In this document: positions 887-30,702 of the stretch, one piece after another
Numbering within the stretch: the stretch's first letter is position 1
Layout: every line of letters starts with the position of its first letter
NCBI RefSeq assembly: GCF_003966335.1
Contig: NZ_CP034549.1
Span: 360,001-392,000, forward strand
From: Nonlabens ponticola
GTDB lineage: Bacteria; Bacteroidota; Bacteroidia; Flavobacteriales; Flavobacteriaceae
Length of the DNA: 32,000 nt
Direction of reading: 5' to 3'
Notes under the pieces: model-generated
Databases searched by the model: none
What the model saw: only the letters and a program-made list of their open reading frames with translations
Told to the model about the DNA's origin: nothing
Program-made: the position numbers and the translations under genes

Positions 887-2839
887 TTACTGCACAAGTA
901 GAGACCTAGTTAATAGAGTGGTATCGTCCAGCATGATTTTCACCAGATACATTCCAGGTGTCGCAGGAACTTCAAATCGGCTGGCATTGGCATCTTGATA
1001 TTGATCCACTATTCTACCTTGCAAATCATATATGATGAGCTGCTCCATCCTACCTTCCATTCCATCCACAATAAAATAATCACGCGCTGGATTGGGGTAT
1101 AACCTGAGTTGTGCCGTATCAAAATCATCCATACTCAAAGTCGCCGTATTCTGACTTGAAATGATTTTAGTTTCTGGATCAATCATTACATCAGTGACTG
1201 CAAAGTCAATATCGTCAAGCACGATTTGTATTTGATTTGCATTTATATCTACCAGAATATCTCTTGTCTGGTTCTCACCTACAAGTCGCAGTGGCAATTG
1301 ACCCTCAAATAAATCTACACTCTCGTGACTCGTGGTCTGTTCGATATCTAGGCTCACTTCTAGATTTTGATCCTGTGAATAGGTGACCTGATAAGATGGG
1401 TGACCTTCATCATAAATCCAATCGTCAAAAAACTCTCGAAGATCTTGACCGCTTGTAACTTCTGCAACTCTTAGGAAATCCTCTGTTTTGGCATAGTCAA
1501 AAGCCAATGCGTTATTATTCAGGAAATTTTTAAGCACGCTATTAAATACATCGGCACCCAATCGATCTTCAAGCATATTGAGTACCATGGCTCCTTTATT
1601 ATAACTCAGTCTGCCATTAAAAACTCTTGAAACGCTTAAGGTATCGGCCGCGGGAACATAAACGCTACCGTCTGGCGCGCTGGTGATGGATCTAAGTCTG
1701 CTTTCTCGCCAGCTTTTAAATGAATCTTCTCCCTTTAATTTTTGTATCGCTTTTCCATTTGCATAGGTAGCAAAGCTCTCATTAATCCATATATCTTGCC
1801 AACTGCCGCAGGTCACCTTATTACCAAACCATTGATGCGCTAGCTCGTGAGCGGTCAAATTAAAACTAAATGTACCCATGAATGATATGGTAGTATGTTC
1901 CATGCCACCATTCCAACCAAATTGCGCATGTCCATATTTCTCATCCTTAAAAGGATAAACACCATAAGATTCTTCAAAAAATGACATCATCGGTGGTGTC
2001 ACCGCTAGATCGCTTCTCGCGCGCTCTAGATCCTCTGGATACACATAATTATTGATATTAAATGCGCTTAAATCGCTCTCATATTCCTGTGTGAACTTTT
2101 CATAATTAGTCACCGCAAAAGCAATCAAGTAAGCAGGAATTGGGTAATTATGTTGCCAGGTATATGTCTTGCCCGCGCCATTATCAAGCTCTTCAATCAA
2201 CAAGCCATTGGAGACACCTGTATTGCCATAGGGAACGTTAAGTGTAACCGTCGTTGCATCAATTTTATCATTAAGATCCTGTTTACAAGGCCACCATGAT
2301 TTGGCTCCATAAGGTTCTGATAGCGTCCAGATGATGCCTTGACCATCGTGCTGTCGTCTCGCATAGCTGCCAAAACCTGTTCCCTCAGGATTACCAGAGT
2401 ACGCTATTGAAATAGTAACCTGATTGTCAGCAGCAATGGCGTTTTCAAAATCAATTTGTAGTAAATCATTGCCTATTGCAGTAATAGTTGTCAAACCTGC
2501 ATCACTAGTAACAGTTTCTGCAGTCATGCCGTCGGCAAAATCTAGATATATGCGATTTAGGTTTTCAGTTGCCTTAAAATCCATGGTCATCTCTCCACTC
2601 ATGGCATCCATATCCGGATCGATGTCTAGCTCTAATTCTACCGCAAGTACGTCATAGTTGTCTTGAGATACAAAGGCATTTTTCTGTGGAATTGATGATA
2701 TCAATCTGGATTTGGCAATGCATGCTTGCACGGCGTCGTTTGATACGTCGATTACTGTGGTATGTTGTTGCGCTATTAAAGAGTCAGCTTTCGCGAAAGC
2801 TAACACCATAAAAACCCATAAACACCAGTCGATCTTCAT
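887..2839 (-). CDS. Secreted M1-family zinc metallopeptidase (aminopeptidase N-like) with a T9SS C-terminal sorting domain
   Basis: 650-aa ORF with an N-terminal signal peptide (MKIDWCLWVFMVLAFAKA). It has a GGMEH exopeptidase-like motif and HELAHQW followed by WINESFATY (HEXXH-18-E). The C-terminus LRLYPNPARDYFIV...GMYLVKIML fits the Por secretion tail. Confidence 0.9.
   Translation of the reverse strand: MKIDWCLWVFMVLAFAKADSLIAQQHTTVIDVSNDAVQACIAKSRLISSIPQKNAFVSQDNYDVLAVELELDIDPDMDAMSGEMTMDFKATENLNRIYLDFADGMTAETVTSDAGLTTITAIGNDLLQIDFENAIAADNQVTISIAYSGNPEGTGFGSYARRQHDGQGIIWTLSEPYGAKSWWPCKQDLNDKIDATTVTLNVPYGNTGVSNGLLIEELDNGAGKTYTWQHNYPIPAYLIAFAVTNYEKFTQEYESDLSAFNINNYVYPEDLERARSDLAVTPPMMSFFEESYGVYPFKDEKYGHAQFGWNGGMEHTTISFMGTFSFNLTAHELAHQWFGNKVTCGSWQDIWINESFATYANGKAIQKLKGEDSFKSWRESRLRSITSAPDGSVYVPAADTLSVSRVFNGRLSYNKGAMVLNMLEDRLGADVFNSVLKNFLNNNALAFDYAKTEDFLRVAEVTSGQDLREFFDDWIYDEGHPSYQVTYSQDQNLEVSLDIEQTTSHESVDLFEGQLPLRLVGENQTRDILVDINANQIQIVLDDIDFAVTDVMIDPETKIISSQNTATLSMDDFDTAQLRLYPNPARDYFIVDGMEGRMEQLIIYDLQGRIVDQYQDANASRFEVPATPGMYLVKIMLDDTTLLTRSLLVQ
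2787..2800. repeat. Copy 1 of the iterated palindrome GCTTTCGCGAAAGC (16-bp palindrome with flanks, 2786..2801)
   Basis: Perfect match read directly. It lies in the M1 peptidase gene and is translated on the minus strand as AFAKA within MVLAFAKADS, the end of the signal peptide. Confidence 0.95.
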
Positions 2840-2905
2840 CTTGAAAAACCCATTGAAACCTGTCAGGAGCGCCCTAAAATCACGTCCTAACTACAGTAAA
2901 GGTCG

Positions 2906-2913
2906 TAAATTTG
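2906..2913 (+). promoter_or_regulatory. Bacteroidetes-type -7 promoter element TAnnTTTG (TAAATTTG) upstream of the SCO1 gene
   Basis: Exact match to the sigma-A -7 consensus TAnnTTTG described for Bacteroidetes, 16 nt upstream of the GTG start at 2929. Confidence 0.45.
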
Positions 2914-2928
2914 TAACAAAGCTCTCAC

Positions 2929-3612
2929 GTGAAGGATTTTCTCAAGAAAAACAAGTATCGCATTCTCTTTATGGTGCTATTATGTGCGGCTATCATGGCT
3001 TCTTTCCAGTATGCGCTCACTCCTGAAAAACAGTTGGCCGTTCTGCAACCAGACCAGTTTGACCCAACGCTGGTAGATGACAGCAAGGTTTTTGTAAAAA
3101 AGTATCATGAGATCGCACCTTTTAAACTTGTCAATCAAAACGGCGACACGATTACAGATGAGTTCTATGACGATAAAATTTATGTAGCCGATTTTTTCTT
3201 CACAGTATGTCCTGGAATTTGCCCAATCATGACCGAGAACATGACACTGCTACAAGAGGAATTTAAAAATGATCCAGAGGTGTTGCTACTGTCTCACAGC
3301 GTCACACCGGAGCAAGACAGTGTGAGTGTCCTGCGTGCTTATGCTGATAAAAAAGGCGTTATTGATGATAAATGGAATCTAGTCACTGGTGATAGAAAGG
3401 AGATTTATGACCTTGCTAGAAAGTCGTACCTAGCTGCCAAGAAGAATAAATTTGGCGGTGAATACGCCATGATTCATACAGAGAATTTCATGCTTGTCGA
3501 TAAGGAAGGTCGCCTGCGTGGTAGGTCCTATGACGGTACTAAAAAGGAGGAAATCGACGCACTCATAGAAGACATTTATATTCTCAAGGAAAGCTACCGT
3601 AAAGAGGATTGA
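2929..3612 (+). CDS. SCO1/SenC family thioredoxin-fold copper chaperone / cytochrome oxidase assembly protein
   Basis: 227-aa ORF with a GTG start, an N-terminal membrane anchor and an FFFTVCPGICP CxxxC motif. Downstream blocks (LLSHSVTPEQDS, HTENFMLVD) are typical of SCO1/SenC. Confidence 0.85.
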   Translation: MKDFLKKNKYRILFMVLLCAAIMASFQYALTPEKQLAVLQPDQFDPTLVDDSKVFVKKYHEIAPFKLVNQNGDTITDEFYDDKIYVADFFFTVCPGICPIMTENMTLLQEEFKNDPEVLLLSHSVTPEQDSVSVLRAYADKKGVIDDKWNLVTGDRKEIYDLARKSYLAAKKNKFGGEYAMIHTENFMLVDKEGRLRGRSYDGTKKEEIDALIEDIYILKESYRKED

Positions 3613-3655
3613 TGACGGCGTGGCTATTGCTTATTTTTGCCGCTTATAATTAGGC

Positions 3656-4360
3656 ATGTCGATTTTTGGTTACATATTTTTATTCTTGGTCATACGCTGG
3701 CTGTACACCTTGTTTACTAATGCACAGGTCAACACAGGAAACCCAACAAGACAGCGTACTCAAAGCACAAGAGTAAGTCCACAAGATTTTGAACTTCATT
3801 TGTTATCACTCACATCCATCGTCATCAAAGCAGATGGAAAGGTCACGCAAAACGAGCTGGACTATGTGCGTCAGTATTTTGTAAGCAATTACGGCAAGGA
3901 TCGAGCAAATGCGATCTTTAAGGTTTTTAATGAAGTCGTCAAAAAGCGTGAAGTAAATCCTGCACGTATTTGTCAATATTTGAATGCACGCACTAGGTAT
4001 GAAAGTCGCTTGCAAATCCTACACTTCTTGTTTGGCATTGCACAGGCAGATGGTCACGTGAGCAGCCCAGAAGTAAGCGTACTATCTCAGATTGCTGGCT
4101 ATTTAAGGTTATCACAGCGAGATTTTATTTCTATCAAGGCAATGTTTGTAAAGGATCAAGACAACGCCTATAAGATTCTTGAAATTGACAAGTCCGTTCC
4201 AGATCATGAGGTAAAAAAGGCCTACCGCACCATGGCCAAAAAATACCATCCCGACAAACTCATCGATATGGACGATGCCTACCGCAAGGGCGCCGAGGAG
4301 AAATTCCGCAAGGTGCAGGAAGCCTATGAAACGATCCAGAAAGAGCGCGGCATGGTCTAG
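3656..4360 (+). CDS. Membrane-anchored TerB-like domain plus C-terminal J-domain co-chaperone (DjlA-like)
   Basis: N-terminal TM helix (IFGYIFLFLVIRWLY) and two TerB-like repeats (ADGKVTQNELDYV, ADGHVSSPEVSVL). The C-terminal J domain is YKILEIDKSVPDHEVKKAYRTMAKKYHPDK. Confidence 0.8.
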   Translation: MSIFGYIFLFLVIRWLYTLFTNAQVNTGNPTRQRTQSTRVSPQDFELHLLSLTSIVIKADGKVTQNELDYVRQYFVSNYGKDRANAIFKVFNEVVKKREVNPARICQYLNARTRYESRLQILHFLFGIAQADGHVSSPEVSVLSQIAGYLRLSQRDFISIKAMFVKDQDNAYKILEIDKSVPDHEVKKAYRTMAKKYHPDKLIDMDDAYRKGAEEKFRKVQEAYETIQKERGMV

Positions 4361-4478
4361 CCACGCAATCTTGTGACAGCACTACTCGTTGTATCGCATA
4401 TTACCTATATTTACTGTTAGGTGACAGATGATTCATCCAGCGCATAAGCGACTGGATTCCAATATATAAGATAGTTCA

Positions 4479-5801
4479 ATGAGTTGTAGTAGTTGTGGAA
4501 CTGGTGGTGACTCGCCACGCGGTTGTAAAAATAATGGTACCTGCGGTACTTCTGGATGTAATAAACTTACCGTTTTTGACTGGCTGGCAAACATGGATTT
4601 GCCCGATGGTCAAGAACAATTCAAATATGTAGAGGTACGTTTTAAAAACAGCCGAAAAGAATTCTTCTACAACAAGGATAATCTTCAACTCAAGATAGGT
4701 GACATTGTTGCCACACAGGCAAACAGCGGTCATGACATTGGGATAGTAACACTTACTGGCGAGTTGGTGCGCGTACAGATGAAACGTAAACGCGTAAAGC
4801 AGGATCCAGAAGAAATCTGCGCCATCTACCGCATTGCCAATCAAACCGATATCGACAAGTGGAAAGCTGCTAGAGATCGTGAGGATGCAATGAAGATAAA
4901 TGCTCGCGAGATAGCCATACGCCTGCAACTACAAATGAAAATTTCTGATATTGAATTTCAGGGTGATGGTTCCAAAGCTACTTTTTACTACACGGCAGAC
5001 CAGCGCGTGGATTTCCGTGAATTAATACGGGAATATGCAGGCACCTTCAAGACGCGCATCGAGATGCGCCAGATAGGCCTGCGACAAGAAGCTGCAAGAT
5101 TAGGCGGCATAGGTTCTTGTGGTAGAGAATTGTGCTGTAGCACGTGGTTGACAGACTTTAGATCTGTAACGACCAGTGCCGCCCGATATCAAAATTTATC
5201 ACTCAATCCACAAAAACTGGCCGGGCAATGCGGTAAGCTCAAATGCTGCTTGAACTATGAGCTAGACTCATACCTAGATGCGTTGAGCACGTTCCCAAAA
5301 CAGAATCAAAAGCTATACACAGAAAAAGGCGTCGCGTTGTGCCAAAAGGTAGATATCTTCAAAGGCCTGATGTGGTATTGCTATGATGGTGAGTGGATGA
5401 ACTGGCACGTACTCACAACAGACCAAGTTCATGAGATCGTCAAAAAGAACAAAGCCAAGGAGAAAGTCGCCAGCATTGAAGAATACGCTAGCGAACTGAT
5501 CATAGAGGAAAAAGTGAGCTTTGAGAATGTGGTAGGACAAGACAGCCTTACTCGATTTGATCAAGCTACCAAGCAACGTGGCAAACGCAAGAAAAGACGC
5601 AATAATCGCAAATCCAGCGGTAATAATACCCGCATTAAGAATACAAATCAGAAAAAAAAAGGCGGCAATAAACCTAACGACTCAAAAAAGCCAGTAGCTC
5701 AAAAAACTACCAGTGGCAATAAGCCATCCAGTAATAAGCGCCGCAGGCCTAAACGCACCAATAAAGGCGGTAGTCAAAACAATAATTCGGCTAAGGAATG
5801 A
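4479..5801 (+). CDS. PSP1 (RicT/YaaT-like) domain protein with a Cys-rich N-terminus and a long basic low-complexity C-terminal tail
   Basis: The core (FKYVEVRFKNSRKEFFYNKD...GDIVATQANSGHDIGIV...GSCGRELCCSTWL...CGKLKCCLNYE) matches the PSP1 C-terminal domain family. The last ~75 aa are K/R/N-rich. The stop overlaps the gldH start (ATGA). Confidence 0.85.
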   Translation: MSCSSCGTGGDSPRGCKNNGTCGTSGCNKLTVFDWLANMDLPDGQEQFKYVEVRFKNSRKEFFYNKDNLQLKIGDIVATQANSGHDIGIVTLTGELVRVQMKRKRVKQDPEEICAIYRIANQTDIDKWKAARDREDAMKINAREIAIRLQLQMKISDIEFQGDGSKATFYYTADQRVDFRELIREYAGTFKTRIEMRQIGLRQEAARLGGIGSCGRELCCSTWLTDFRSVTTSAARYQNLSLNPQKLAGQCGKLKCCLNYELDSYLDALSTFPKQNQKLYTEKGVALCQKVDIFKGLMWYCYDGEWMNWHVLTTDQVHEIVKKNKAKEKVASIEEYASELIIEEKVSFENVVGQDSLTRFDQATKQRGKRKKRRNNRKSSGNNTRIKNTNQKKKGGNKPNDSKKPVAQKTTSGNKPSSNKRRRPKRTNKGGSQNNNSAKE

Positions 5802-6301
5802 TGCGCAACTATGTTTACATATGGGGCGTCTTGTGTTTATGTTTGTTGACCAGCTGCGATGACCAACTAGTAGATAGCGACACGGTAACCATAGCTCAAG
5901 GTTCATGGGATTATGACGCGCCAGTTGAGTTTGAAATCACGCCACCAGACAGCATCAATGATTATGATGTATTCTTTTATGTGCGCAATGATCAACAGTA
6001 TGCTTTTAAAAATCTATGGTTGATCAGTCAATTAAAATTTCCAGAAGGAAAAATCGTTACAGATACATTGCAGTACGAGATGGCAGACTCTCAAGGTAGG
6101 TTTTTAGGAACCGGTAAAGATCTGATTGAAAATAAGTTATGGTATAAGAGAGGTGTTAGCTTTCGCGAAAGCGGAACCCACAATCTCACCATTAAACAAG
6201 CTATGAGACGCAATGGTGACGCACAACCACTTGAACAACTGGATGGCGTACTAGACGTAGGTTATATTATTGAAAAACACATGCCCGATGGCAACAACTA
6301 A
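5798..6301 (+). CDS. gldH: Gliding motility lipoprotein GldH
   Basis: 167 aa with lipobox LLTSC. The body (YDVFFYVRNDQQYAFKNLWLISQL...TDTLQYEMADSQGRFLGTG...NKLWYK...LTIKQAMR) resembles F. johnsoniae GldH. The conserved context PSP1-gldH-PBP1A supports the call. Confidence 0.85.
   Translation: MMRNYVYIWGVLCLCLLTSCDDQLVDSDTVTIAQGSWDYDAPVEFEITPPDSINDYDVFFYVRNDQQYAFKNLWLISQLKFPEGKIVTDTLQYEMADSQGRFLGTGKDLIENKLWYKRGVSFRESGTHNLTIKQAMRRNGDAQPLEQLDGVLDVGYIIEKHMPDGNN
6159..6172. repeat. Copy 2 of the iterated palindrome GCTTTCGCGAAAGC
   Basis: Perfect match inside gldH, read in a different phase from the other coding copies: (A)GC TTT CGC GAA AGC gives SFRES within GVSFRESGTH. Confidence 0.95.
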
Positions 6302-8615: not shown

Positions 8616-8619
8616 CAAT

Positions 8620-9333
8620 ATGTTGCAACGGTTATCCATACACAACATTCTATTTCTCGATATCGAGACGGTACCTCAGCAAGAAGATTTTAAGGATCTA
8701 GATAAAATTGATCAAGAGCTATTTGCTCAAAAAACACAATACCAGCGAAGAGACGATAAAACTCCTGAGGAATTTTATGATCGTGCTGGCATCTGGGCAG
8801 AGTTTGGCAAAATCATATGTATCTCTGTAGGTTACTTTAGTGAGAAGACAAGTAACAGCAGTTTTAGGGTGCGCAGTTTCACTGGTGAAGAACGAGACAT
8901 CTTGATGGATTTCTCCGCACTTCTTGAGGAGCATTTCTCTAGACGCGATCATTTGTTGTGCGCCCATAATGGCAAGGAATTCGACTTTCCTTACATAGCG
9001 AGACGATTGGTCATTCATGGATTGCCATTACCGGTAAAGCTCAATTTGTTTGGTAAAAAGCCATGGGAAATACCGCACCTTGATACGATGGAGCTGTGGA
9101 AATTTGGCGACTACAAACATTTTACCAGTATCAAATTACTCACGAGAGTGTTGGGCGTACCATCGCCCAAAGATGATATAGATGGCTCGCAGGTACGAGA
9201 TGTATTCTATAAAGAGAATGACATTTCCCGCATCGCGACCTACTGCGAGAAAGATGTAATTGCAGTCGCCCAAGTGCTGTTGCGTATGAGGAACGAGCCA
9301 CTGCTTAAAGACAGCGATATTGTCATCAAATAA
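8620..9333 (+). CDS. DnaQ/RNase H-fold 3'-5' exonuclease (PolB-exonuclease-like)
   Basis: Has an ExoI-like LFLDIETV (DxE) motif, an ExoII-like HNGKEFDFPY motif and a C-terminal YCEKDV motif. It starts 5 nt after the PBP1A stop. Confidence 0.7.
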   Translation: MLQRLSIHNILFLDIETVPQQEDFKDLDKIDQELFAQKTQYQRRDDKTPEEFYDRAGIWAEFGKIICISVGYFSEKTSNSSFRVRSFTGEERDILMDFSALLEEHFSRRDHLLCAHNGKEFDFPYIARRLVIHGLPLPVKLNLFGKKPWEIPHLDTMELWKFGDYKHFTSIKLLTRVLGVPSPKDDIDGSQVRDVFYKENDISRIATYCEKDVIAVAQVLLRMRNEPLLKDSDIVIK

Positions 9334-11011
9334 TCCCATAGTTGAAGTTCAAGGCTTGAACCTAAGTTTTTCAACGAACCATGGTAGCATTCAAGTACTT
9401 CATGATGTGTCGTTCGATCTTCATCCTAACGAGATACTAGCCATCGTTGGTGAGTCTGGCAGCGGTAAATCTGTTACCAGCAAGGTGCTCATGGGCTTGT
9501 TACCAGAGAAAATTACTCAAATAGACTGCAGGAAACTAGAGGTACAACAGAATGATATTAGAGATTTTAAGGAGCGTGATTGGTCTCGCTTTCGCGGAAG
9601 CGTCATCTCAATGATCTTTCAAGAACCTATGAGCAGCCTGAATCCTACTATAACTTGTGGACAACAGGTGGCTGAGATACTGAAAATCCACACTTCACTT
9701 AACACACTACAACGCAAGACTGAAGTTCTTGAGCTTTTTGAAAAAGTAAAATTGCCAGAACCTGAAGTCACCTATAAAAAATATCCACATGAGATAAGTG
9801 GTGGCCAGATGCAACGTGTGATGATCGCGATGGCAATTGCCTGTAAACCTAAAATCCTAATTGCAGATGAGCCAACGACGGCGCTTGATGTGACTGTGCA
9901 GCAAGAAATCTTGATGCTACTCAAGGAATTGCAGGCAGATTATGGTATGAGCATGATTTTTATATCGCACGATCTAGGTGTGGTAAAATCCTTTGCAGAT
10001 CGTATTCTGGTGATGTATCAAGGTAGGATTGTAGAATCCGAGACAGCCACAAATATTTTTGAAAATGCACAACACGACTACACAAAAGCTTTGATCAACT
10101 CAAGACCTGATCCCGAGCAGCGCGTGAAACGACTGCCTACCATTACTGACTTTTTAAATGATACTGTAAAATCTGTTTATGAAGATGTATCAAAACGTCA
10201 TGAGCGATTGTCAATCATGTATGATAAGGCGCCCGTCCTAACAGTGGAAAATGTAGTAAAGGACTATCTAGGCAATAGAAACTCGGTTTTTGGTAAACGA
10301 TACATGTTTAGAGCGGTCGACCATGTGAGTTTTGAGCTGTATCCACAGGAAAGTCTAGGTGTTGTGGGCGAGAGCGGTTGTGGAAAGAGTACTTTAGGTA
10401 ACATGATCACTGGCTTGCGTGATGCCACCAGTGGTAGTATTAGGTATCACGGTACTGATCTATCACAACTATCCCAAAAAGACTGGCGTGCCTATCGTAA
10501 GGATATCCAGATCATTTTTCAGGATCCATTTGCGTCACTCAATCCTAGAATAAAAATAGGTGAAGCAATCATAGAACCCATGCAGATTCATGGGATAGGA
10601 AGCAACCATAAAGAGCGTAAAAAGATGGTGGAAAAGCTCCTAGAACAAGTAGGTCTAGAGGCATCACATTATGATCGATACCCACATGAATTTAGTGGTG
10701 GTCAACGTCAACGTATAGGCATCGCCCGCACTGTAGCTCTGCAACCTAAAATTATTGTTTGTGATGAGTCTGTGAGCGCGCTAGATATATCAGTACAAGC
10801 ACAAGTACTTAATCTGCTCAACGAGTTGAAGGAATTATATGACTTTTCCTATTTGTTTATCTCGCACGATCTAGCGGTAATAAAATATTTCTGCGATCGA
10901 GTGATCGTCATGAATAAAGGTAAAATTGAGGAAATTCAAGAGGCCGATGCACTGTTTGCAAAGCCTACTTCAACTTATACTAGAAAATTAATTGATTCTA
11001 TACTGCACTAA
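9320..11011 (+). CDS. Duplicated (two-NBD) ABC transporter ATP-binding protein, DppD/DppF-YejF type
   Basis: Two Walker A motifs (GESGSGKS, GESGCGKS), two signatures (ISGGQMQR, FSGGQRQR) and two Walker B motifs (LIADEPTTALD, IVCDESVSALD). The start is TTG at 9320 and overlaps the exonuclease gene by 14 nt. No permease or binding-protein gene is nearby. Confidence 0.9.
   Translation: MSSNNPIVEVQGLNLSFSTNHGSIQVLHDVSFDLHPNEILAIVGESGSGKSVTSKVLMGLLPEKITQIDCRKLEVQQNDIRDFKERDWSRFRGSVISMIFQEPMSSLNPTITCGQQVAEILKIHTSLNTLQRKTEVLELFEKVKLPEPEVTYKKYPHEISGGQMQRVMIAMAIACKPKILIADEPTTALDVTVQQEILMLLKELQADYGMSMIFISHDLGVVKSFADRILVMYQGRIVESETATNIFENAQHDYTKALINSRPDPEQRVKRLPTITDFLNDTVKSVYEDVSKRHERLSIMYDKAPVLTVENVVKDYLGNRNSVFGKRYMFRAVDHVSFELYPQESLGVVGESGCGKSTLGNMITGLRDATSGSIRYHGTDLSQLSQKDWRAYRKDIQIIFQDPFASLNPRIKIGEAIIEPMQIHGIGSNHKERKKMVEKLLEQVGLEASHYDRYPHEFSGGQRQRIGIARTVALQPKIIVCDESVSALDISVQAQVLNLLNELKELYDFSYLFISHDLAVIKYFCDRVIVMNKGKIEEIQEADALFAKPTSTYTRKLIDSILH
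9588..9601. repeat. Copy 3 (degenerate, 13/14) of the iterated palindrome: GCTTTCGCGgAAGC
   Basis: One A-to-G mismatch. It lies in the ABC ATPase gene and reads (C)GC TTT CGC GGA AGC, giving RFRGS, the same phase as the gldH copy. Confidence 0.7.
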
Positions 11012-11854: not shown

Positions 11855-13762
11855 CTATTGTTTTGGTGACCTCGCCGGTAGCTCGATCATATTATTATCG
11901 CCCACTTTTACCATACTATTTCCAGTAATGGTGATTGTTCCTGCGGTAAAGTCATCATCATTTGCCTCGAAAATGTTGTCCACATACTTCTGTGGATTGC
12001 GATCAATGTATGGAAACCAGGTGCTGTGTATTTGTATCATGATGCGATGACCTTTCTTAAAAGTGTGCAACACATCTTGCAACGCAAAATTTACTTGAGT
12101 CTTCTTGCCTTTTTCAAATGGCTCTGGAGTCACAAAACTATTTCTAAAACGTCCTCTAAATGTTTCTGCGCGTACTAGTTGTTGATAACCAGCAAGCGTG
12201 ATATGCTCTGGTGTTTGTGGATCGTTTTTCATATCATTCGGATAGACATCAATGACTTTGACAATGAAATCTGCGTCATCAATATCCTTTAATATGACTT
12301 CAAGATTTGCTTGAATCTCGCCGGATAATCGCTGGTCGTCCTCTAGAATATCTGTAGTAAAAGTAAGTACATCAGGTCGACGTGAGGCATGACGTTGATC
12401 GTCTGTCATATAAGCTCGTGGTGTAAAAGTCACTGGCGTCACCTCACTGCGAAATGGTACTGGTTTCATAGGATCACTGACATAAGAAAACATGGCATCT
12501 TCTTCTACTTCTTCATTGATGGTGAGCTCACCATTTTCTTTAAACCCAAACACGATCTCGTCTTGCTCAGGCGGCCATTTCTCAAATTGCTCCCATTGCT
12601 TGAGACCTGTGTCAAACATGTAGGCTTCTGGTAACTTTGGATTCTTTTTACCCTTTAAGTGGTGCTCAAAGAACGGTGTCTCAATCTGCTTTTGATAAAA
12701 GGTTGACATGCTGTCGCCGTAATAAATATGGTTTACCATTTGAGCGCCGCGCTCGCGTGCCCAATTACCATGGCTCCACGGTCCCATGACGATGGTGTTG
12801 TTTTTATTTTTTGGGTTGTAACGCTCTACATTCTTATAGATCGTTAGTGGCCCATACAAATCCTCTGCATCAAACCAGCCGCCTACGGTCATCACAGCAT
12901 GATCGACATCAGTTAGATGGTTGACAATGGCACGCTTCTGCCAGAATTCGTCATAATTAGGATGTGTGGCAACGTCTTTCCAGAAAAAGTTGTCTGGAAA
13001 AATTTCTTCGGTTACTGTTTTGAGACTTCCTAAACCTAAGTTGAATTGATACGAGTCTTTCAAGTTACCGGCAGCTCTCATGGCATCCCATTTATCTGCA
13101 TACCAGCTTGTGGTAGTAGGTTCTGTCTGGTGACCAAAAACTGGATATGCCATCAAATAACTTTGCAACGTGGCACCATTGTGATGAAAATCATCGAAGA
13201 AAAAATCACCAATAGGTGCCTGTGGAGATGACGCGACTAGCGCTGGATGAGCCTCAGGCAATGCGGCAGCCGTGTAAAAACCTGGATAGGAAATACCCCA
13301 TTGACCTACCTTACCGTTAGTTCCTTTTACGTTTTTGAGCAGCCACTCAATCGTGTCATATGTGTCTGAGCTCTCGTCTATATCTTTTTTATTCTTGACA
13401 TTGTTGCCTGGAATGTGTGGTCGCATGTTATCAAAATCACCTTCACTCATCCATCTACCACGCACGTCTTGATAAACAAATATGTAGCCATCTTCCATCA
13501 TATACTTATTGGGTCCTAAGGATGTCTTGTATTCATCGTCTCCATAGGGTGCGACGCTGTAACAAGTGCGCTGCAACATCATTGGATATTGTTGTGAAGT
13601 ATCCTTAGGCGCATAGACCACCGTGTAAAGTTTGACACCATCGCGCATGGGAATCATGTGGACTTGCTTAGTATAATTTTCAGTTACATAGGTTTGTTGG
13701 GATTGCGCTTTCGCGAAAGCGTAACCCATAACAATCAATAAACACGTGACAAGATTTTTCAT
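11855..13762 (-). CDS. Secreted CocE/NonD-family serine hydrolase (S15 X-Pro dipeptidyl-peptidase-like)
   Basis: 635 aa with signal peptide MKNLVTCLLIVMGYAFAKAQ. The N-terminal block is IPMRDGVKLYTVVYAPKD...YPMMLQRTCY and the nucleophile elbow is WGISYPGF. The large C-terminal beta-sandwich region is typical of PepX_C. Confidence 0.85.
   Translation of the reverse strand: MKNLVTCLLIVMGYAFAKAQSQQTYVTENYTKQVHMIPMRDGVKLYTVVYAPKDTSQQYPMMLQRTCYSVAPYGDDEYKTSLGPNKYMMEDGYIFVYQDVRGRWMSEGDFDNMRPHIPGNNVKNKKDIDESSDTYDTIEWLLKNVKGTNGKVGQWGISYPGFYTAAALPEAHPALVASSPQAPIGDFFFDDFHHNGATLQSYLMAYPVFGHQTEPTTTSWYADKWDAMRAAGNLKDSYQFNLGLGSLKTVTEEIFPDNFFWKDVATHPNYDEFWQKRAIVNHLTDVDHAVMTVGGWFDAEDLYGPLTIYKNVERYNPKNKNNTIVMGPWSHGNWARERGAQMVNHIYYGDSMSTFYQKQIETPFFEHHLKGKKNPKLPEAYMFDTGLKQWEQFEKWPPEQDEIVFGFKENGELTINEEVEEDAMFSYVSDPMKPVPFRSEVTPVTFTPRAYMTDDQRHASRRPDVLTFTTDILEDDQRLSGEIQANLEVILKDIDDADFIVKVIDVYPNDMKNDPQTPEHITLAGYQQLVRAETFRGRFRNSFVTPEPFEKGKKTQVNFALQDVLHTFKKGHRIMIQIHSTWFPYIDRNPQKYVDNIFEANDDDFTAGTITITGNSMVKVGDNNMIELPARSPKQ
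13707..13720. repeat. Copy 4 of the iterated palindrome GCTTTCGCGAAAGC (16-bp palindrome 13706..13721)
   Basis: Perfect match, translated on the minus strand as AFAKA in GYAFAKAQSQ, the signal-peptide cleavage region of the S15 peptidase. Confidence 0.95.
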
Positions 13763-18599: not shown

Positions 18600-19176
18600 A
18601 TTATCGATGGTGGTTGTGGTGGTGTTAGCTTTCGCGAAAGCGTATTCCCAAAAATCCTCTACCACAAACCAAAAGGTCGAGCAAGAATCCAGAATAGCAT
18701 TAGAACAAATGGACGATGCAGCTCGCATTCTCATTGTTGAACTAGGCGCTACACCGTCCAGAACCAAGCTCTATGAAGAGCAAGATGGCAGCAAAAAATC
18801 ATACGAGGCAAAATTCAAAGTGAACCGAAAGAAATACAGTGCAGAATTTGATCGCAACTGGCAACTAGAAGATGTGGAAATAAAATCTACACGCCGATCT
18901 ATAGACAAGAAATTGTGGCGATCCATAAACTCACAATTGGACACGATGGCTCGCAAGTGGCGACTAGAAAAAATGCAGTTACAGTATCTGCCTTCTAGCG
19001 ACGTACGGCAACTCAAGCAAAAAATTAGCTCAAAACAATTTGATAACCTGGAACTTATAGTAGCATTCAAGAATAACAAGGCAGTTTATAGAAAAGAGTT
19101 ACTGTTTTCAAGCCGAGGTAAATTATTGAGTCAACGAGATATCAAAAGACGCAGATATGATTTCTTGTTGTTCTAA
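18586..19176 (+). CDS. Secreted hypothetical protein (possibly PepSY-like repeats)
   Basis: Signal peptide MMNYRLSMVVVVVLAFAKAYSQ. Repeated segments of the type YEAKFKVNRKKYSAEFDRNWQLEDVE resemble PepSY-like modules. The family assignment is weak. Confidence 0.55.
   Translation: MMNYRLSMVVVVVLAFAKAYSQKSSTTNQKVEQESRIALEQMDDAARILIVELGATPSRTKLYEEQDGSKKSYEAKFKVNRKKYSAEFDRNWQLEDVEIKSTRRSIDKKLWRSINSQLDTMARKWRLEKMQLQYLPSSDVRQLKQKISSKQFDNLELIVAFKNNKAVYRKELLFSSRGKLLSQRDIKRRRYDFLLF
18628..18641. repeat. Copy 5 of the iterated palindrome GCTTTCGCGAAAGC
   Basis: Perfect match, translated on the plus strand as AFAKA in VVVLAFAKAYSQ, a signal-peptide cleavage region. Confidence 0.95.
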
Positions 19177-20554: not shown

Positions 20555-20923
20555 TTAGAACGGTAGATCGTCGTGATCCTCATCCTTACTATTACTTATC
20601 GGGTCGTACTCATCAAACGGTGGTACCTCAGCCGCTGGTGCACCAGCACCTACTTTTTCAATACGCCATCCAGCGATCGAATTAAAATATTTGGTTTCAC
20701 CTTGTGGACTTTGCCACTCACGACCGCGCAGATTGATACCTACTTTTACCGTATCGCCTACGTTAAAGGCATCTAGCAAACCTGTTTTATCCTGCACAAA
20801 TTCAATCATGAGGTGCTGTGGATACTGCTCTTCAGTGGTTACAACGAGCTCACGTTTTTGAAAACCGTTTGAGCCGTAAGACTTTGTTTCTCCTACTAAT
20901 TTGATCTTTCCTTGAACTTCCAT
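20555..20923 (-). CDS. DUF3127-type OB-fold protein with an SSB-like acidic C-terminal tip
   Basis: 122 aa. The N-terminal ~95 aa (GKIKLVGETKSYGSNGFQKRELVVTT...GDTVKVGINLRGREWQSPQGETKYFNSIAGWRIEK) fit DUF3127. A Pro/Ala linker follows, and the terminus is EDHDDLPF. Confidence 0.7.
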   Translation of the reverse strand: MEVQGKIKLVGETKSYGSNGFQKRELVVTTEEQYPQHLMIEFVQDKTGLLDAFNVGDTVKVGINLRGREWQSPQGETKYFNSIAGWRIEKVGAGAPAAEVPPFDEYDPISNSKDEDHDDLPF

Positions 20924-20925: not shown

Positions 20926-21777
20926 TTATTGTAATAAAATTTTCCAGGCGTCCAGCATGTGACCGTTTGCGATCAATGTTTTCGCCATTTTGTGTTTGTC
21001 TATTTGTTTGAGATTGTATGTGTTGTTAGCTTTCGCGAAAGCTTGCACCTCATCAACCTCTGGTACTTCCTTTACATTTCCTAGTTTGCCCAGATCATTA
21101 CCAGACAAGATCTCGCTATCTCTTGCGTGATCTGGCAGTGCGTCCACGCCTACTCCTTTATCACGCAGTGGTTTTGCTACTTCAAACATAGCGTCTTTTG
21201 AACGGCAATACCAGTTGCCACCCATGCGCGCCACGGTATCGATTTTAAAAGGGTCAATATCGTTATTCTCATCGAGAATCTCATCATCAACATGCACATG
21301 CTGCACCTCACAGAAAATGAGGTTTCCAGCGCCACCTTGTTGACCCATTTCCTTGATCTCGATCACGTTGCACTCAAATTGCACAGGACTTTCTGCCACT
21401 CGTGGTGGTTTCACGCTCACACTGTCACGTGCTGTGAGACCCGATTTAATAAATTCATTGACGCCGGTATCATACTCGGTACTAGCAAGTGACATTTGCT
21501 GTACCAGATCATAGTTGACCACATTAATGACGATCTCACCAGTCTCACGTGCGTTTTCCAGCGTGTCTTTGGTCGTGTTATCGCGCATGCGGCGCAACGG
21601 ACTAAACACCAGTACTGGCGGATTTACACTCAACACATTATAAAACGAATATGGCGATAAATTTACCTTGCCATCCTTATCTACTGTACTTGCAAAAGCG
21701 ATGGGACGCGGCTGCACAGCGCCAGCAAGTATGCCATACAACTGCGATGATTCAACGTCTTGTGCCTTTATTTCCAT
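20926..21777 (-). CDS. Flavin reductase family protein (FMN-binding split barrel)
   Basis: LYGILAGAVQPRPIAFASTVDKDGKVNLSPYSFYN is a typical Flavin_Reduct block. I prefer the ATG at 21777 (MEIKAQD) over the tracked start at 21849. Confidence 0.8.
   Translation of the reverse strand: MEIKAQDVESSQLYGILAGAVQPRPIAFASTVDKDGKVNLSPYSFYNVLSVNPPVLVFSPLRRMRDNTTKDTLENARETGEIVINVVNYDLVQQMSLASTEYDTGVNEFIKSGLTARDSVSVKPPRVAESPVQFECNVIEIKEMGQQGGAGNLIFCEVQHVHVDDEILDENNDIDPFKIDTVARMGGNWYCRSKDAMFEVAKPLRDKGVGVDALPDHARDSEILSGNDLGKLGNVKEVPEVDEVQAFAKANNTYNLKQIDKHKMAKTLIANGHMLDAWKILLQ
21029..21042. repeat. Copy 6 of the iterated palindrome GCTTTCGCGAAAGC (16-bp palindrome 21028..21043)
   Basis: Perfect match, translated on the minus strand as AFAKA in DEVQAFAKANNTY, near the C-terminus of the flavin reductase and not in a signal peptide. 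Confidence 0.95.
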
Positions 21778-24419: not shown

Positions 24420-24433
24420 GCTTTCGCGAAAGC
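24420..24433. repeat. Copy 7 of the iterated palindrome GCTTTCGCGAAAGC (16-bp palindrome 24419..24434); the only intergenic copy
   Basis: Perfect match in the 100-nt spacer between the clpP stop (24449) and the clpX start (24348). Confidence 0.95.
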
Positions 24434-26626: not shown

Positions 26627-26974
26627 CTAGTCTTCTTCCTTGTCTAACATCTTGAACAGGATAGATCTTGCGATGGCAAGCAGTAGTGCAAAGATGAGTG
26701 CATACCAAACGTTTGCTACATCAAAACCGCCAACAAGCCAGTCTGCCATCATGATTATAAAGGCATTGATGAATAACAGAAAGATTCCCAGCGTAATTAC
26801 AGTAATAGGCAAAGTCAGTATCACCAGTATAGGTTTTACAATGAAATTAAGTATGGATAAGGCTAATGCAACAAGTACAGCACTGAAAAGGCCTGTCGTC
26901 TCAACACCAGGCATAATATAAGAAAGCACTAGAACCAAGACAGCAGTTACCAGAAGTTTGATCAAAAAGTTCAT
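26627..26974 (-). CDS. Four-TM membrane protein of the phage holin family IV / DUF360 type
   Basis: 115 aa, MNFLIKLLVTAVLVLVLSYIMPGV...ILNFIVKPILVILTLPITVITLGIFLLFINAFIIMMADWLVGGF. This is the characteristic architecture of PF04020-like proteins. Confidence 0.75.
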   Translation of the reverse strand: MNFLIKLLVTAVLVLVLSYIMPGVETTGLFSAVLVALALSILNFIVKPILVILTLPITVITLGIFLLFINAFIIMMADWLVGGFDVANVWYALIFALLLAIARSILFKMLDKEED

Positions 26975-26987: not shown

Positions 26988-27030
26988 ATAAAAATAGAAA
27001 ATCCGCTAGAGAATGATTCTCTAGCGGATT
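26988..27030 (-). terminator. Strong rho-independent terminator after the FadL-SGNH operon (bidirectional in form)
   Basis: A perfect 13-bp stem AATCCGCTAGAGA/TCTCTAGCGGATT (27000..27012 and 27018..27030) has a 5-nt loop. On the minus strand it is followed by TTTTCTATTTTT. It lies 22 nt downstream of the stop at 27053. Confidence 0.8.
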
Positions 27031-27052
27031 GTCATTTTTGAAAGCAAAAAGT

Positions 27053-28576
27053 TTACTGGACGTTGTTACTAGGCTGTACACCTTTGTATTGTCCAATGTT
27101 TACTGGCGGTACAGTAGAGCCGTACTGTGCGTTGATAGCTTCTAGTATTGCGTTTGCCGTGAAGGCATAACCTCTAGGTGTTGGGTGAACAGCATCTAGA
27201 GAAAATGCACCACCTGTGGCATACGTGCTGGTCAATACACCACCATCAAAGGCGACGCCACCATCAGCAACTTGTGCAAGGAAAGAACGAGCATCAACAA
27301 GAGCTAATCCTTTTTGAGCAGCAATGCCTGCAATTACATTATTATAAGCTTCTTGAGCATCTTCAATACGATCTTGCTCAACACGAGTTAGTACATTTCC
27401 ATCTTCTAATGGTACACCAACGCCGCGTACAGAATTAGGATTGTTAGGGTCTGCTAGAGTACCTAGTACCGTTGCTGCAGTAAAGACGATTAGATCATCC
27501 TCATCAGCTTGTCTTAAATTAGGCAATCCTAGAGCAGATAGGTCTGTCAAGTCCTCATCATCAAGTACTGGTCCATTTTGACCAGCTACAAAGTTGATGG
27601 TTCTAGCTTCACGCTCGTCTGAATCTATGAATCCAGCAGCCTCAGCAGCAAGCAATCCACCGTTATATTGAGCATAGGCCATATTTACACCAGCAGCAGT
27701 CTGACCATCTAGTGGTATGGCATTGAAAGGTACTGTAGTAAAGAATGGGATTGATGTAACATCTGGAATGTTGATCAAGGCACCTTTAGCGCCATTTGCA
27801 GTAAGTGCATCAACATAACCTGAGTAAACACTTGCAAAAACATTGACGTTGGTAATATCATTTGATCCGTAAGTTCTTGGGTCAAGATCTACACCTGTGT
27901 CATCATCGTCATCGTCATCGTCACTATTACGGTCGTTACCATCACCACCTGAAGTAGCAAAACTCAAGATGTCGTTGTTACCAATCCATAGAGTGAAGAA
28001 TGTAGGGTCTGCTGCAACAGCATCACCTATTACTGTAGCGTTGTCACTTGAAGCAAAACGCACATAATAAGGATTTGCAGTACCGGTTGCTACTCCAGCA
28101 AGATTCCCATATCCAGGAGCACCTAGATGGAAACTTTTTGCACCTGGAACACCAAAGTTGTTCAAGTCACCAGTCACTCTATTTGTAATGTCTGTCGTAG
28201 GAGTTCCTGCAAGCACCGCTGGACCTAGGTCTGGAGTTGCTGCTAACACTAACCTGTTAGGTAATATCTGTACGCCACCGGCTAGAACACCGCCTAGATT
28301 ATCTGCCACAAGAGGCTGGAAAAACTCACCACCACCTACAAGGGTAAATTGTTGCGCCATGATGGCTGGGTAAGAATCTTCTTGTCCTTCTAGATAAAGT
28401 GCAGCATCAGCAAATCCTGCGGTAAGAGAATTACCTACAGCTACATACTTACTGAAGTCTGCCTCACCAGCTTCATACTGGTCACCATCTTCAACTGAAT
28501 CGTCAAACTCATTTGCACAGCTCACCATAGTAGCGGCAGCAGCAAACAGAGCTAAATATTTAAATGTATTTTTCAT
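27053..28576 (-). CDS. SGNH/GDSL-family hydrolase lipoprotein with a large insertion and a poly-Asp tract
   Basis: Lipobox TMVSC. Block I is VAVGNSLTAG (nucleophile Ser), block III is LWIGNNDIL and block V is SLDAVHPT (Asp/His). A D8 run lies between blocks III and V. The gene starts 12 nt after the FadL-like gene. Confidence 0.75.
   Translation of the reverse strand: MKNTFKYLALFAAAATMVSCANEFDDSVEDGDQYEAGEADFSKYVAVGNSLTAGFADAALYLEGQEDSYPAIMAQQFTLVGGGEFFQPLVADNLGGVLAGGVQILPNRLVLAATPDLGPAVLAGTPTTDITNRVTGDLNNFGVPGAKSFHLGAPGYGNLAGVATGTANPYYVRFASSDNATVIGDAVAADPTFFTLWIGNNDILSFATSGGDGNDRNSDDDDDDDDTGVDLDPRTYGSNDITNVNVFASVYSGYVDALTANGAKGALINIPDVTSIPFFTTVPFNAIPLDGQTAAGVNMAYAQYNGGLLAAEAAGFIDSDEREARTINFVAGQNGPVLDDEDLTDLSALGLPNLRQADEDDLIVFTAATVLGTLADPNNPNSVRGVGVPLEDGNVLTRVEQDRIEDAQEAYNNVIAGIAAQKGLALVDARSFLAQVADGGVAFDGGVLTSTYATGGAFSLDAVHPTPRGYAFTANAILEAINAQYGSTVPPVNIGQYKGVQPSNNVQ
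27899..27922. repeat. Imperfect hexanucleotide repeat (GTCATC)n encoding Asp8
   Basis: GTCATCATCGTCATCGTCATCGTC on the plus strand equals GAC GAT GAC GAT GAC GAT GAT GAC on the coding strand. Confidence 0.9.
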
Positions 28577-28588
28577 CTTTTCTTTTTT

Positions 28589-29833: not shown

Positions 29834-29872
29834 ATTCAGTTGTTTAAGGTATATTTTAAAGTTTTATTGAGC

Positions 29873-29880
29873 CAAATTTA
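29873..29880 (-). promoter_or_regulatory. -7 promoter element TAAATTTG (TAnnTTTG) for the FadL-SGNH operon
   Basis: Exact consensus on the minus strand, 40 nt upstream of the ATG at 29833. Confidence 0.45.
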
Positions 29881-29893
29881 ATATTAAATTAAT

Positions 29894-29927
29894 ACTACGC
29901 AAGCGTTTTCGTAGTCATTATGCTTGC
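29894..29927 (-). terminator. Possible terminator after the pdxJ-hydrolase operon (two overlapping alternative hairpins)
   Basis: Stems ACTACG/CGTAGT (29894..29899 and 29910..29915) and GCAAGC/GCTTGC (29899..29904 and 29922..29927) overlap. On the minus strand they are followed by AT-rich ATTAATTTAAT. The region begins 10 nt after the stop at 29938. Confidence 0.4.
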
Positions 29928-29937
29928 ATAATATTAT

Positions 29938-30702
29938 TTATTTTATGAATTCCACAACCATATCGTGAAATTTATCTGGTTCTTGTGCATGCAGCCAGTG
30001 TCCTGCGTTGGGTATTGTTTTTAGTTCCGCTTTCGCGAAAGCGTGATCAATCAACATCTTATCGCTATCTAATATGTATCCCGATTCTCCACCGCGTATG
30101 AACAAGGTAGGTATATCTATAGGCTCATCATGCTGCTCATGAGTTCCTACATCATGCTGGCTCGCAGCTAGTGTGGGTAAGTTAAAACGCCAGCCATAGG
30201 TATTTTTATCGATACGGTGCAGGCTTTTCATCAAGAACATGCGGGTTCCTACATCATTGATACGCTGGGCAAGAATCTTATCTGCATCGCCACGTTTCTT
30301 GAGTGTTGTAAAATCTACCGACTGCAACGCATTGATGATATCGCTGTGATGCGGTGCGTATTCTTTGGGAGCAATATCTGCAATGATCAATTTGTCGATA
30401 AGTTCTGGATACATGGCGGCACACCGCATGGCGACCTTACCGCCCATGCTGTGTCCTAATAGTACGATGTTTTCCAAGTCATACTCCTTGCAATAATTTG
30501 ACACATCTTGTGCCATATCATTATAATCAAAGGTATCGCTATGAAAACTGCGACCATGATTGCGTTGATCGAGCAGGTGCACTTGAAATCCATCCTGTGA
30601 CCAGCGAGTTCCTAGCGTTTTCCAGTTGTCTGCCATGCCCAGGAATCCGTGTAATATAACGAAGGGCTTGCCTTCTCCCAATATGATGCTGTGCAGTTTC
30701 AT
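29938..30702 (-). CDS. Alpha/beta-fold hydrolase (YbfF-like esterase)
   Basis: [10 protein letters not shown] oxyanion region, nucleophile elbow GHSMGG and C-terminal NAGHWLH. It overlaps the pdxJ stop by 4 nt. Confidence 0.85.
30029..30042. repeat. Copy 8 of the iterated palindrome GCTTTCGCGAAAGC (16-bp palindrome 30028..30043)
   Basis: Perfect match, translated on the minus strand as AFAKA in [12 protein letters not shown], a cytoplasmic-type alpha/beta hydrolase with no signal peptide. Confidence 0.95.

Follow-up and report, generated by a model that had tools for sequence, protein, structure and literature searches.

What maintains a perfect 14-bp palindrome, GCTTTCGCGAAAGC, in one gene after another of a flavobacterial chromosome? 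The question is raised by a 32-kb stretch of the Nonlabens ponticola genome (contig NZ_CP034549.1, positions 360,001 to 392,000 of the forward strand; hereafter the window, numbered from its first letter), in which GCTTTCGCGAAAGC occurs perfectly at seven positions (2787, 6159, 13707, 18628, 21029, 24420 and 30029) and as one 13/14 copy at 9588. All eight coordinates had been listed in an initial annotation of the window and all are present. No further match with up to two mismatches is found in the window, and dinucleotide shuffles of it give an expectation of 0.03 against the 8 copies seen. The comparisons below show that the palindrome forms the core of a highly iterated DNA signal that is specific to one lineage, the Nonlabens/Dokdonia clade.

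Abundance and lineage restriction

A sample independent of the motif was drawn from 80 metagenome loci that were picked solely for a homologue of the flavin-reductase-like protein encoded in the window. The nine closest loci (66-71% amino acid identity, 117 kb) contain 23 copies of GCTTTCGCGAAAGC. The other 71 loci, which represent other Flavobacteriaceae at about 55% identity and amount to 715 kb, contain none, and the outgroup L322 is likewise free of copies. The window and the nine closest loci were combined into a clade pool of 149 kb. This pool holds 30 perfect copies, 4 copies with one mismatch, 4 with two and 2 with three; the corresponding numbers in the 71 non-clade loci are 0, 0, 3 and 27. 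Trained on sequence in which the motif was masked, Markov models (orders 1, 3 and 5) predict at most 0.001 copies compared with the 30 observed in 149 kb. The claim of the initial annotation that the count is far beyond chance is borne out by these models, with an excess of at least 10^4-fold over expectation.

A scan of one genome per species yielded at least 120 eight-kb blocks with the palindrome. Among the blocks listed, approximately 57 are from Dokdonia or Nonlabens and approximately 28 from uncultured Flavobacteriaceae, and many have 2-3 copies per 8 kb. The remainder of the blocks listed are lone matches scattered across unrelated phyla, mostly of high GC content. The density of about 1 copy per 4-5 kb corresponds to about 600-700 copies per genome when extrapolated from the roughly 150 kb of clade DNA.

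The central hexamer TCGCGA is found 24 times outside the motif in the clade pool, where 18-24 occurrences are expected, and the half-site GCTTTCG alone is seen 5 times with 2.3 expected, which is no clear enrichment. The 16-mer CGCTTTCGCGAAAGCG, in turn, accounts for 21 of the 30 perfect copies in the pool. Because the hexamer and the half-site occur near expectation while most copies are 16-mers, the iterated unit is the whole palindrome, neither its NruI-like centre nor a half-site. A role of TCGCGA as a restriction or methylation target, which had been suggested from the window, finds no support in the hexamer count. Related "dialect" palindromes in other Flavobacteriaceae were also considered and rejected: among palindromic 12-mers of the 71 non-clade loci, only the AT-rich CTTTTATAAAAG recurs, twice each in L181 and L200.

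Copies in the N. ponticola window

The eight copies lie in the following contexts, with a slash at signal-peptide ends:

2787..2800, gene on the minus strand, phase 0: perfect 14-mer at the signal-peptide end of the M1 peptidase (...VLAFAKA/DS)
6159..6172, gene on the plus strand, phase 1: perfect 14-mer in gldH, encoding SFRES (amino acids 121-125)
9588..9601, ABC ATPase gene: 13/14 copy GCTTTCGCGGAAGC, encoding RFRGS
13707..13720, gene on the minus strand, phase 0: perfect copy with C/G extension (16-mer) at the signal-peptide end of the S15 peptidase (GYAFAKA/QS)
18628..18641, gene on the plus strand, phase 0: perfect 14-mer at the signal-peptide end of a 196-amino-acid protein (VLAFAKA/YS)
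21029..21042, gene on the minus strand, phase 0: perfect 14-mer encoding AFAKA in a variable C-terminal linker of the flavin-reductase-like gene
24420..24433, clpP-clpX intergenic region: perfect copy (16-mer) within a conserved 18-nt block
30029..30042, gene on the minus strand, phase 0: perfect copy (16-mer) near the C-terminus of the alpha/beta hydrolase (HAFAKAE)

The location of most copies within unrelated genes, as described in the initial annotation, agrees with the Pfam assignments, which recover the M1 peptidase, GldH, the ABC ATPase, the S15 peptidase, the flavin-reductase-like protein and the alpha/beta hydrolase; the 196-amino-acid protein gave no match in a Pfam search. The GldH encoded in the window is 100% identical to the N. 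ponticola protein at NCBI, in agreement with the species given for the window. When genic and intergenic copies are tallied, the clpP-clpX copy is the sole intergenic one in the window. Five of the genic copies are read as AFAKA, three of them at signal-peptide ends, and the other two as xFRES or xFRGS.

A frame preference is also seen beyond the window. With genes called by crude longest-ORF (open reading frame) rules, 82 of 176 copies fall into frame 0, 26 into frame 1 and 20 into frame 2, and 48 are located outside any long ORF. The position along the gene is approximately uniform apart from the first tenth, where copies are in excess (23 of 104); these correspond to signal-peptide ends. 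In frame 0, the motif provides the A-x-A region of the signal peptide (...LAFAKA/xS).

Conservation of the sites at the DNA level

The nearest relative of the window, L121, is syntenic with it from 9.7 to 31.2 kb, and the five copies found in L121 are exactly the five window sites of this interval. Third codon positions are identical at a fraction of 0.47 between the two sequences, and 2.1% of control 14-mers are perfectly conserved, compared with 5 of 5 motif sites. The intergenic copy between clpP and clpX is part of an 18-nt block, CGCTTTCGCGAAAGCGTA, that is identical in L121, with diverged and indel-rich intergenic DNA around it. When every pair of related loci is compared, 67 sites prove perfect, 4 are conserved at a two-codon offset and 1 is a real change.

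The same pattern is found gene by gene. The flavin-reductase-like site is perfect in 8 of the 9 closest relatives though neighbouring codons vary. The site in the 196-amino-acid protein is perfect in L121 despite 44% protein identity, and L127 has the variant GCTTTTGCAAAAGC in its place. A perfect copy is present at the equivalent place of the M1 peptidase orthologue in L129 (50% amino acid identity), and the alpha/beta hydrolase site is perfect in L121. Three further genomes, Nonlabens sp. Hel1_33_55 (L319), N. marinus (L320) and a Nonlabens metagenome-assembled genome (L321), cover the gldH region. In all three, a perfect 16-mer is located at the orthologous gldH codon (L319:10362, L320:10359, L321:5359). 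The S15 peptidase site is perfect in L121, L319 (position 17966) and L320 (position 18013) and absent from the 53%-identical homologue in L047. The 13/14 copy is repeated base for base as the same imperfect 14-mer in L319:13783, L320:13792 and L321:8826; it is probably a genuine site in which a Gly codon holds GCTTTCGCGGAAGC one base short of perfect. These comparisons show that sites are held letter-perfect for as long as synonymous sites take to saturate.

Ordinary protein constraint, which the initial annotation had itself raised as a competing explanation, does not produce this pattern: in distant orthologues both the peptide and the motif are missing, and in clade orthologues both are kept, synonymous positions included. 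A feature of the RNA or protein might still be considered, namely an mRNA hairpin, a terminator or selection for the AFAKA peptide with preferred codons, for example as a signal-peptidase site. AFA and AKA suit signal peptidase I, three of the window copies and 23 of the 104 genic copies overall lie at signal-peptide ends, and the core is able to form a hairpin of 5-6 bp. However, the copies are spread over all three reading frames as well as intergenic DNA, the four synonymous positions per copy are invariant against 47% third-position identity elsewhere, and AFAKA is not kept in distant homologues. The hairpins are also weak (z-scores of -0.4 to -2.3), no copy is terminator-like, the T-rich side is located upstream and not downstream of the hairpin, and a search of the copies against Rfam returned no matches. 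The conservation at synonymous sites and the spread over the reading frames already refute an RNA- or protein-level explanation for the most part, and it is regarded here as extremely unlikely.

Origin by substitution

The alignments of GldH are gap-free across the site. Clade members have [R/S]FRES where outgroup sequences have KFEES, VFKES, RFTEK, VFPDS or KFNEP. The ancestral gldH codons (TTT ... GAA AGC) were similar to the motif beforehand. The left "flank" of the gldH copy encodes ENKLW.K.G, which is kept in GldH orthologues without the motif. At the flavin-reductase-like site, approximately 70 homologues at about 55% identity show unrelated residues and indels, and AFAKA is found within the clade. 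These alignments show that base substitution gives rise to the copies, at positions that tolerate change and were similar to the motif from the outset, such as signal-peptide ends, variable linkers and intergenic DNA.

The palindrome had been likened to the Rickettsia palindromic elements (RPEs) and to the footprint of a tiny mobile element. Neither likeness holds: no insertion is seen in the GldH or flavin-reductase alignments, and the sites are stable across species. RPEs share with GCTTTCGCGAAAGC that they are short, high-copy palindromic repeats that may lie in frame inside genes, but they are inserted segments of about 100-150 bp by which residues are added, whereas GCTTTCGCGAAAGC replaces codons at unchanged length and at sites that are orthologous across genera. 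Repetitive extragenic palindromic (REP) sequences, with their composite forms BIME (bacterial interspersed mosaic elements) and REPIN, are extragenic imperfect palindromes mobilised by RAYT (REP-associated tyrosine transposase) proteins; GCTTTCGCGAAAGC is intragenic in 28 of 30 copies of the motif-independent sample (~93%), and no RAYT gene is seen in the window. A miniature mobile element with in-frame insertion, whether RPE-like, REP-like or similar to a miniature inverted-repeat transposable element (MITE), would account for the high copy number, the palindromic form and shared flank words such as GGTGTTA-GC, and the absence of a graded series among degenerate copies could suggest one-step creation. 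Against it, orthologues without the motif have the same length, the flanks are ancestral coding sequence, the sites are orthologous and stable across genera, target duplications were not seen, and the window shows no transposase-like gene. Because of the GldH and flavin-reductase-like alignments and the ancestral coding sequence to the left of the gldH copy, RPE- or MITE-like insertion is excluded for these sites; as a general account, the mobile element is largely refuted and scarcely plausible.

Extended core and mirrored flanks

In a set of 152 copies, C occupies position -1 in 80% and T occupies position -3 in 69%. The 31 copies without a long ORF have the consensus TAC-GCTTTCGCGAAAGC-GTA, with C at -1 in 90%, A at -2 in 60% and T at -3 in 79%. 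The palindrome usually reaches 16-20 bp. This extension was overlooked in the initial annotation, as were mirrored flanks of about 25 nt and a regular spacing of the copies. An example of the full footprint is found at the S15 peptidase site:

13679..13748, full footprint (~70 bp): C-poor, G/T-rich 5' flank, core, and G-poor, A/C-rich 3' flank

Mirror-image flanks of this kind accompany every copy, and their statistics were collected over 150-350 half-sites. On each strand, the 5' flank has a C fraction of 0.02-0.10 compared with 0.18, and T and G are enriched. The GC skew is +0.6 beside the core and falls to zero by about -30 nt. At third codon positions of copies located at least 50 codons from the gene start, C is reduced to 0.07 and T raised to 0.44 upstream, and G is reduced to 0.06 and A raised to 0.44 downstream (baselines: C 0.17, G 0.17); the pattern is present on both sides independent of gene direction. 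The skew is also found around non-coding copies, in which flank C is apparently replaced largely by T. It is weaker in multi-copy viral contigs and absent around chance matches in unrelated genomes and viruses. An origin of the skew in signal peptides or coding-strand bias was rejected, as it remains at least 50 codons from the start, in both gene directions and at non-coding copies.

Within the flank, C is tolerated at positions -2, -8, -14 and -20 (for example in window 13687-13706), i.e. at intervals of about 6 nt, which may be a contact pattern of whatever factor reads the motif. The flank skew as a whole may be part of the recognition, or a deamination scar from single-strandedness. An extended hairpin or cruciform, in which the G/T-rich and A/C-rich flanks would be the arms of a stem, was rejected: flank complementarity at fixed offsets equals the prediction from base frequencies, and the folding energy of real copies (-14.16 kcal/mol) does not differ from that of chimeras of left and right flanks (-14.06 kcal/mol, P=0.68).

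Spacing of the copies

The gaps between neighbouring copies in the window, with the copy at 9588 counted, are 3372, 3429, 4119, 4921, 2401, 3391 and 5609 bp, corresponding to a spacing of about 3.4 kb. The 21 gaps in the motif-independent loci have a mean of 4.2 kb, a coefficient of variation of 0.40 and a minimum of 1650 bp. Their regularity was unmatched by uniform placement in 20,000 trials (P<1e-4, with some of the sites being mutually orthologous). For the window alone, the regularity has P=0.02, or P=0.0016 when the copy at 9588 is included. An independent test on fixed 8-kb blocks from many genomes found 5 gaps below 1.5 kb where 19.8 are expected (P<5e-5). Copies avoid lying close together.

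Decay variants and biased repair

The variant GCTTTTGCAAAAGC, in which both outer CpGs are changed symmetrically to TpG/CpA and AFAKA is retained, occurs independently at two orthologous sites (L124 1153-1166 and L127 around 6909). In the loci searched, this double variant was found 3 times versus 2 single-change intermediates. The strain pair L123/L124 differs by both GCTTTTGCAAAAGC changes, which are located at synonymous third positions, and by 58 other differences (3.7% of 1756 aligned nt, gaps counted). Hypermutable 5-methylcytosine as the cause of the TTGCAA variant in L124 was therefore set aside as weakly supported.

Elhai's model for the highly iterated palindromes (HIPs) of cyanobacteria offers a neutral drive that could apply here, in which a methyltransferase acting on TCGCGA or CGCG is coupled to a repair activity like VSP (very short patch) repair that converts near-matches into the palindrome. 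It would fit a core that holds a typical type II methylase palindrome, the scarcity of one-mismatch variants, and the CpG-to-TpG/CpA change as the commonest decay product, reached independently at two sites. HIPs also co-occur with cognate orphan methylases (PMC4390886). On the other hand, TCGCGA at expectation outside the motif implies a specificity of 14-20 bp, which is far beyond known methylase/VSP systems, and by a rough estimate chance near-matches to the 14-mer seem too few to give rise to hundreds of copies. Conservation of sites across species, their regular spacing and the stable 13/14 copy point to selection on individual sites and not to replenishment, and the changes in L124, synonymous and in a 96%-identical pair, are no strong evidence of 5-methylcytosine. 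Neither Blow et al. 2016 nor the genome papers on Dokdonia and Nonlabens contain a methylome of a clade member. Methylation-coupled repair is considered an unlikely source of the array.

Resident and acquired DNA

The region upstream of PSP1-gldH differs between genomes. In L319 and L320, about 8.7 kb of low-GC, defence-island-like DNA (GC range for both islands 0.28-0.35) contain no copy, and the adjoining 11.8 kb of core genes contain 3-4 perfect copies and the 13/14 copy. The island in L319 (1-8700) encodes ResIII helicases and GIY-YIG/LEM-3 nucleases, and the one in L320 (1-8600) encodes an ORC/Cdc6-like ATPase, a wHTH (winged helix-turn-helix) protein and a Dam-like methylase. With differing gene sets at one place, the region may be an integration hotspot. 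The adjoining genes in the window (4479-11011) comprise PSP1/YaaT, gldH, a class A penicillin-binding protein, a PolB-like 3'-5' exonuclease and a double ABC ATPase. Adjacent ORFs overlap in this segment, and the gene order is conserved in the four Nonlabens genomes examined (the window and L319-L321).

Matches in the IMG/VR database are mostly chance singletons. Several flavobacterial phage- or prophage-like contigs have 2-3 copies that are located 3-6 kb apart. These belong to contig families (L253, L289/L314/L317 and L236/L240/L254/L280) with 2-3 copies each, at positions that are conserved among related contigs. L253 (IMGVR_UViG_2617271332_000001) is prophage-like, with genes for a head maturation protease and for an endolysin. 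Neither of the cultured lytic Nonlabens phages, P12024S and P12024L, has a copy within 2 mismatches or any TCGCGA; at the density of the host, the chance of finding none in a single phage genome of 35.7 kb is below 0.001. A BLAST search of GenBank phages with a 30-nt consensus gave chance matches only. Phages as universal carriers of the motif were rejected on the basis of P12024S and P12024L. Because copies are absent from the islands and the lytic phages and present in the adjoining core and in some prophage-like contigs, the motif marks long-resident DNA.

A separate link between the window and these phages is a chromosomal DUF3127 protein (window 20555-20923): gp20/gp21 of P12024S/P12024L, a single-strand DNA-binding protein, is annotated with the same domain.

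A bidirectional Chi-like signal that modulates AddAB/RecBCD from either side would make the G/T-rich flank the 3' tail for RecA loading, an attractive reading of this strand. The G/T-rich flank is on the strand that would survive as a 3' tail, copies are present in long-resident DNA and absent from islands and lytic phages, and at about 1 site per 4-5 kb the density is similar to that of Chi in E. coli. Known Chi sites, however, are 5-8 nt long, asymmetric, read on a single strand and oriented with replication. An orientation bias of the Chi type does not apply to GCTTTCGCGAAAGC, because a perfect palindrome is without orientation, and a duplex palindrome of 16-20 bp is not a known substrate of helicase-nucleases. 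A Chi-like function is rated as very unlikely.

Relation to known iterated signals

HIP1 (GCGATCGC), found in cyanobacteria, had been named as a parallel, and this likeness persists for a palindrome that is made by substitution and conserved at the DNA level. Both palindromes are hyper-abundant against Markov expectation, occur in all frames and in intergenic DNA, are conserved at orthologous sites (including non-coding ones), are non-randomly spaced and restricted to a lineage, and in both cases the function is unproven. For HIP1, conservation at orthologous positions above that of control words and a chromosomal periodicity have been reported (PMC5861425), as well as a role in transformation (bioRxiv 10.1101/2024.09.10.611283) and a proposal as an uptake sequence (bioRxiv 10.64898/2026.06.24.733823). 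The differences are nevertheless considerable. HIP1 has 8 bp compared with the 14-20 bp of GCTTTCGCGAAAGC, reaches up to one copy per gene compared with about 1 per 4-5 kb, and is periodic over 10-90 kb, whereas GCTTTCGCGAAAGC shows a spacing of about 3.4 kb and short-range avoidance. GCTTTCGCGAAAGC further differs in its mirror flanks of about 25 nt and its Bacteroidota host, and it has no GATC/CGATCG core and no known cognate methylases.

The uptake signal sequences (USS) of Haemophilus and the DNA uptake sequences (DUS) of Neisseria are the second class of comparable elements. They are evenly spaced and scarce in recently acquired DNA. Like GCTTTCGCGAAAGC, they are present in hundreds to thousands of near-perfect, clade-confined copies that are mostly genic and located at tolerant positions, with a frame bias to harmless peptides (here AFAKA), conservation of orthologous sites and, in the case of USS, a weaker extended flank consensus. 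Clade-wide excess, even spacing, frame bias and scarcity in recently acquired DNA are all found for GCTTTCGCGAAAGC. USS and DUS are, in contrast, asymmetric 9-12-mers with about 1 copy per kb that are often paired as terminators, and GCTTTCGCGAAAGC is self-complementary and not terminator-like.

Full-text literature searches with 10- to 14-mers, for iterated palindromes or uptake sequences in Flavobacteria, and through the Dokdonia and Nonlabens genome papers revealed no prior description, in line with the initial annotation, which knew of no equivalent in Flavobacteriaceae. GCTTTCGCGAAAGC is a highly iterated genomic signal that is clearly different from the known ones, i.e. longer, sparser, regularly spaced, equipped with large asymmetric flanks and located in a new phylum. 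Few iterated signals are known, HIP1, USS/DUS and Chi among them, and each of these has opened up a part of DNA biology, from uptake specificity and recombination control to nucleoid structure. The function of HIP1 is debated after 30 years, and GCTTTCGCGAAAGC provides an independent example in a different phylum. Its length makes it unambiguous, and it offers two additional measurable properties, the spacing rule and the strand-asymmetric footprint. Nonlabens and Dokdonia are cultivable models of rhodopsin biology, which offers a route to the protein that reads the motif and to a distinction between uptake and architecture.

Two practical uses are also apparent. In clade genomes and metagenome bins, the motif serves as a clean marker that sets resident DNA apart from recent acquisitions. 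Moreover, hundreds of clade proteins carry AFAKA, RFRES or LSRK for reasons that lie at the DNA level, many of them at signal-peptide cleavage regions, and the cleavage-region peptide shared by secreted clade proteins could mislead motif-based protein annotation.

Candidate functions

The anatomy of the sites suggests that each copy is the putative target of a factor made by the clade that binds DNA sequence-specifically and is two-fold symmetric (dimeric). A two-fold-symmetric reader is proposed because the whole palindrome and not the half-site is enriched, because the symmetry extends over approximately 60 bp and because one-mismatch variants are rare. Such a dimeric factor would read these sites, and purifying selection, or a drive of equivalent effect, would maintain the array so that roughly one site is present in every 3-4 kb. 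At a confidence slightly short of even, the sites are interpreted as reading marks for a clade-specific protein machine, with a two-fold site of about 60 bp at about 1 per 3-4 kb. They would then form the first uptake-signal-like or chromosome-structuring array in Bacteroidota, and the C-poor flanks would represent either a large recognition surface or a mutational scar, left where the 3'-ending side of each half-site is repeatedly exposed as a single strand.

The role favoured here is that the motif may tag resident "self" DNA for uptake or recombination, as USS and DUS do and as has been proposed for HIP1. This is a guess, put forward tentatively, that is based on parallels to USS/DUS and HIP1: the copies are evenly spaced, biased in frame, placed at tolerant positions, missing from islands and lytic phages, and restricted to the clade.

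Several points weigh against reading marks of this kind, and in part against the self-DNA tag in particular. The window contains housekeeping genes only, with no cognate protein, methylase or competence system among them. The genome-wide copy number is an extrapolation from about 150 kb of clade DNA, the gene calls follow the longest ORF and are crude, and the tests for spacing and conservation partly reuse orthologous sites. The skew of the flanks could be a trace of mutation and not a feature of recognition. Compared with GCTTTCGCGAAAGC, the uptake sequences known so far are shorter, asymmetric and some four to five times denser. Natural competence in Nonlabens or Dokdonia is not documented in the literature. 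Within the family, competence is known only for Riemerella, for which no specific uptake sequence is defined, and F. johnsoniae tested negative (PMC7965970).

The architecture of the chromosome would provide a different purpose for the same array, unrelated to uptake. The copies would then be anchoring or loading sites, one every 3-4 kb, for a nucleoid-organising protein such as a Noc/ParB-like, SMC- or topoisomerase-associated or domain-boundary factor. The perfect palindrome without clear half-site enrichment, the symmetric footprint of about 60 bp, the strong mutual avoidance with regular spacing and the long-term conservation of sites are all consistent with such a role, and Xu et al. 2018 reached a like conclusion for HIP1 from its periodicity (PMC5861425).

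The sites of ParB-type proteins deserve a closer comparison. parS and Noc-binding sites (NBS) are perfect TTTC...GAAA palindromes of 14-16 bp and thus superficially like GCTTTCGCGAAAGC, and NBS are often intragenic binding sites dispersed over the chromosome. They differ in their TTTC-N4-GAAA arrangement compared with TTTC-N2-GAAA in GCTTTCGCGAAAGC, and in copy number, with 4-70 sites compared with hundreds (by density) that are regularly spaced. The estimate of 600-700 sites is far above the tens in known specific nucleoid-protein arrays, and copies in some prophage-like contigs are not obviously needed for an architectural role. No candidate protein was found, and specifically no ParB-like reader of GCTTTCGCGAAAGC was identified. 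A chromosome-architecture role is doubtful by itself and nearly as likely as the self-DNA tag.

A second palindrome in the window

A further perfect palindrome of 31 bp, AATCCGCTAGAGAATCATTCTCTAGCGGATT, is located at window 27000-27030, between a holin-family gene (26627-26974) and a GDSL-lipase-like gene (27053-28576). It has T-runs on both strands and looks like an ordinary bidirectional intrinsic terminator that is unrelated to the iterated motif.

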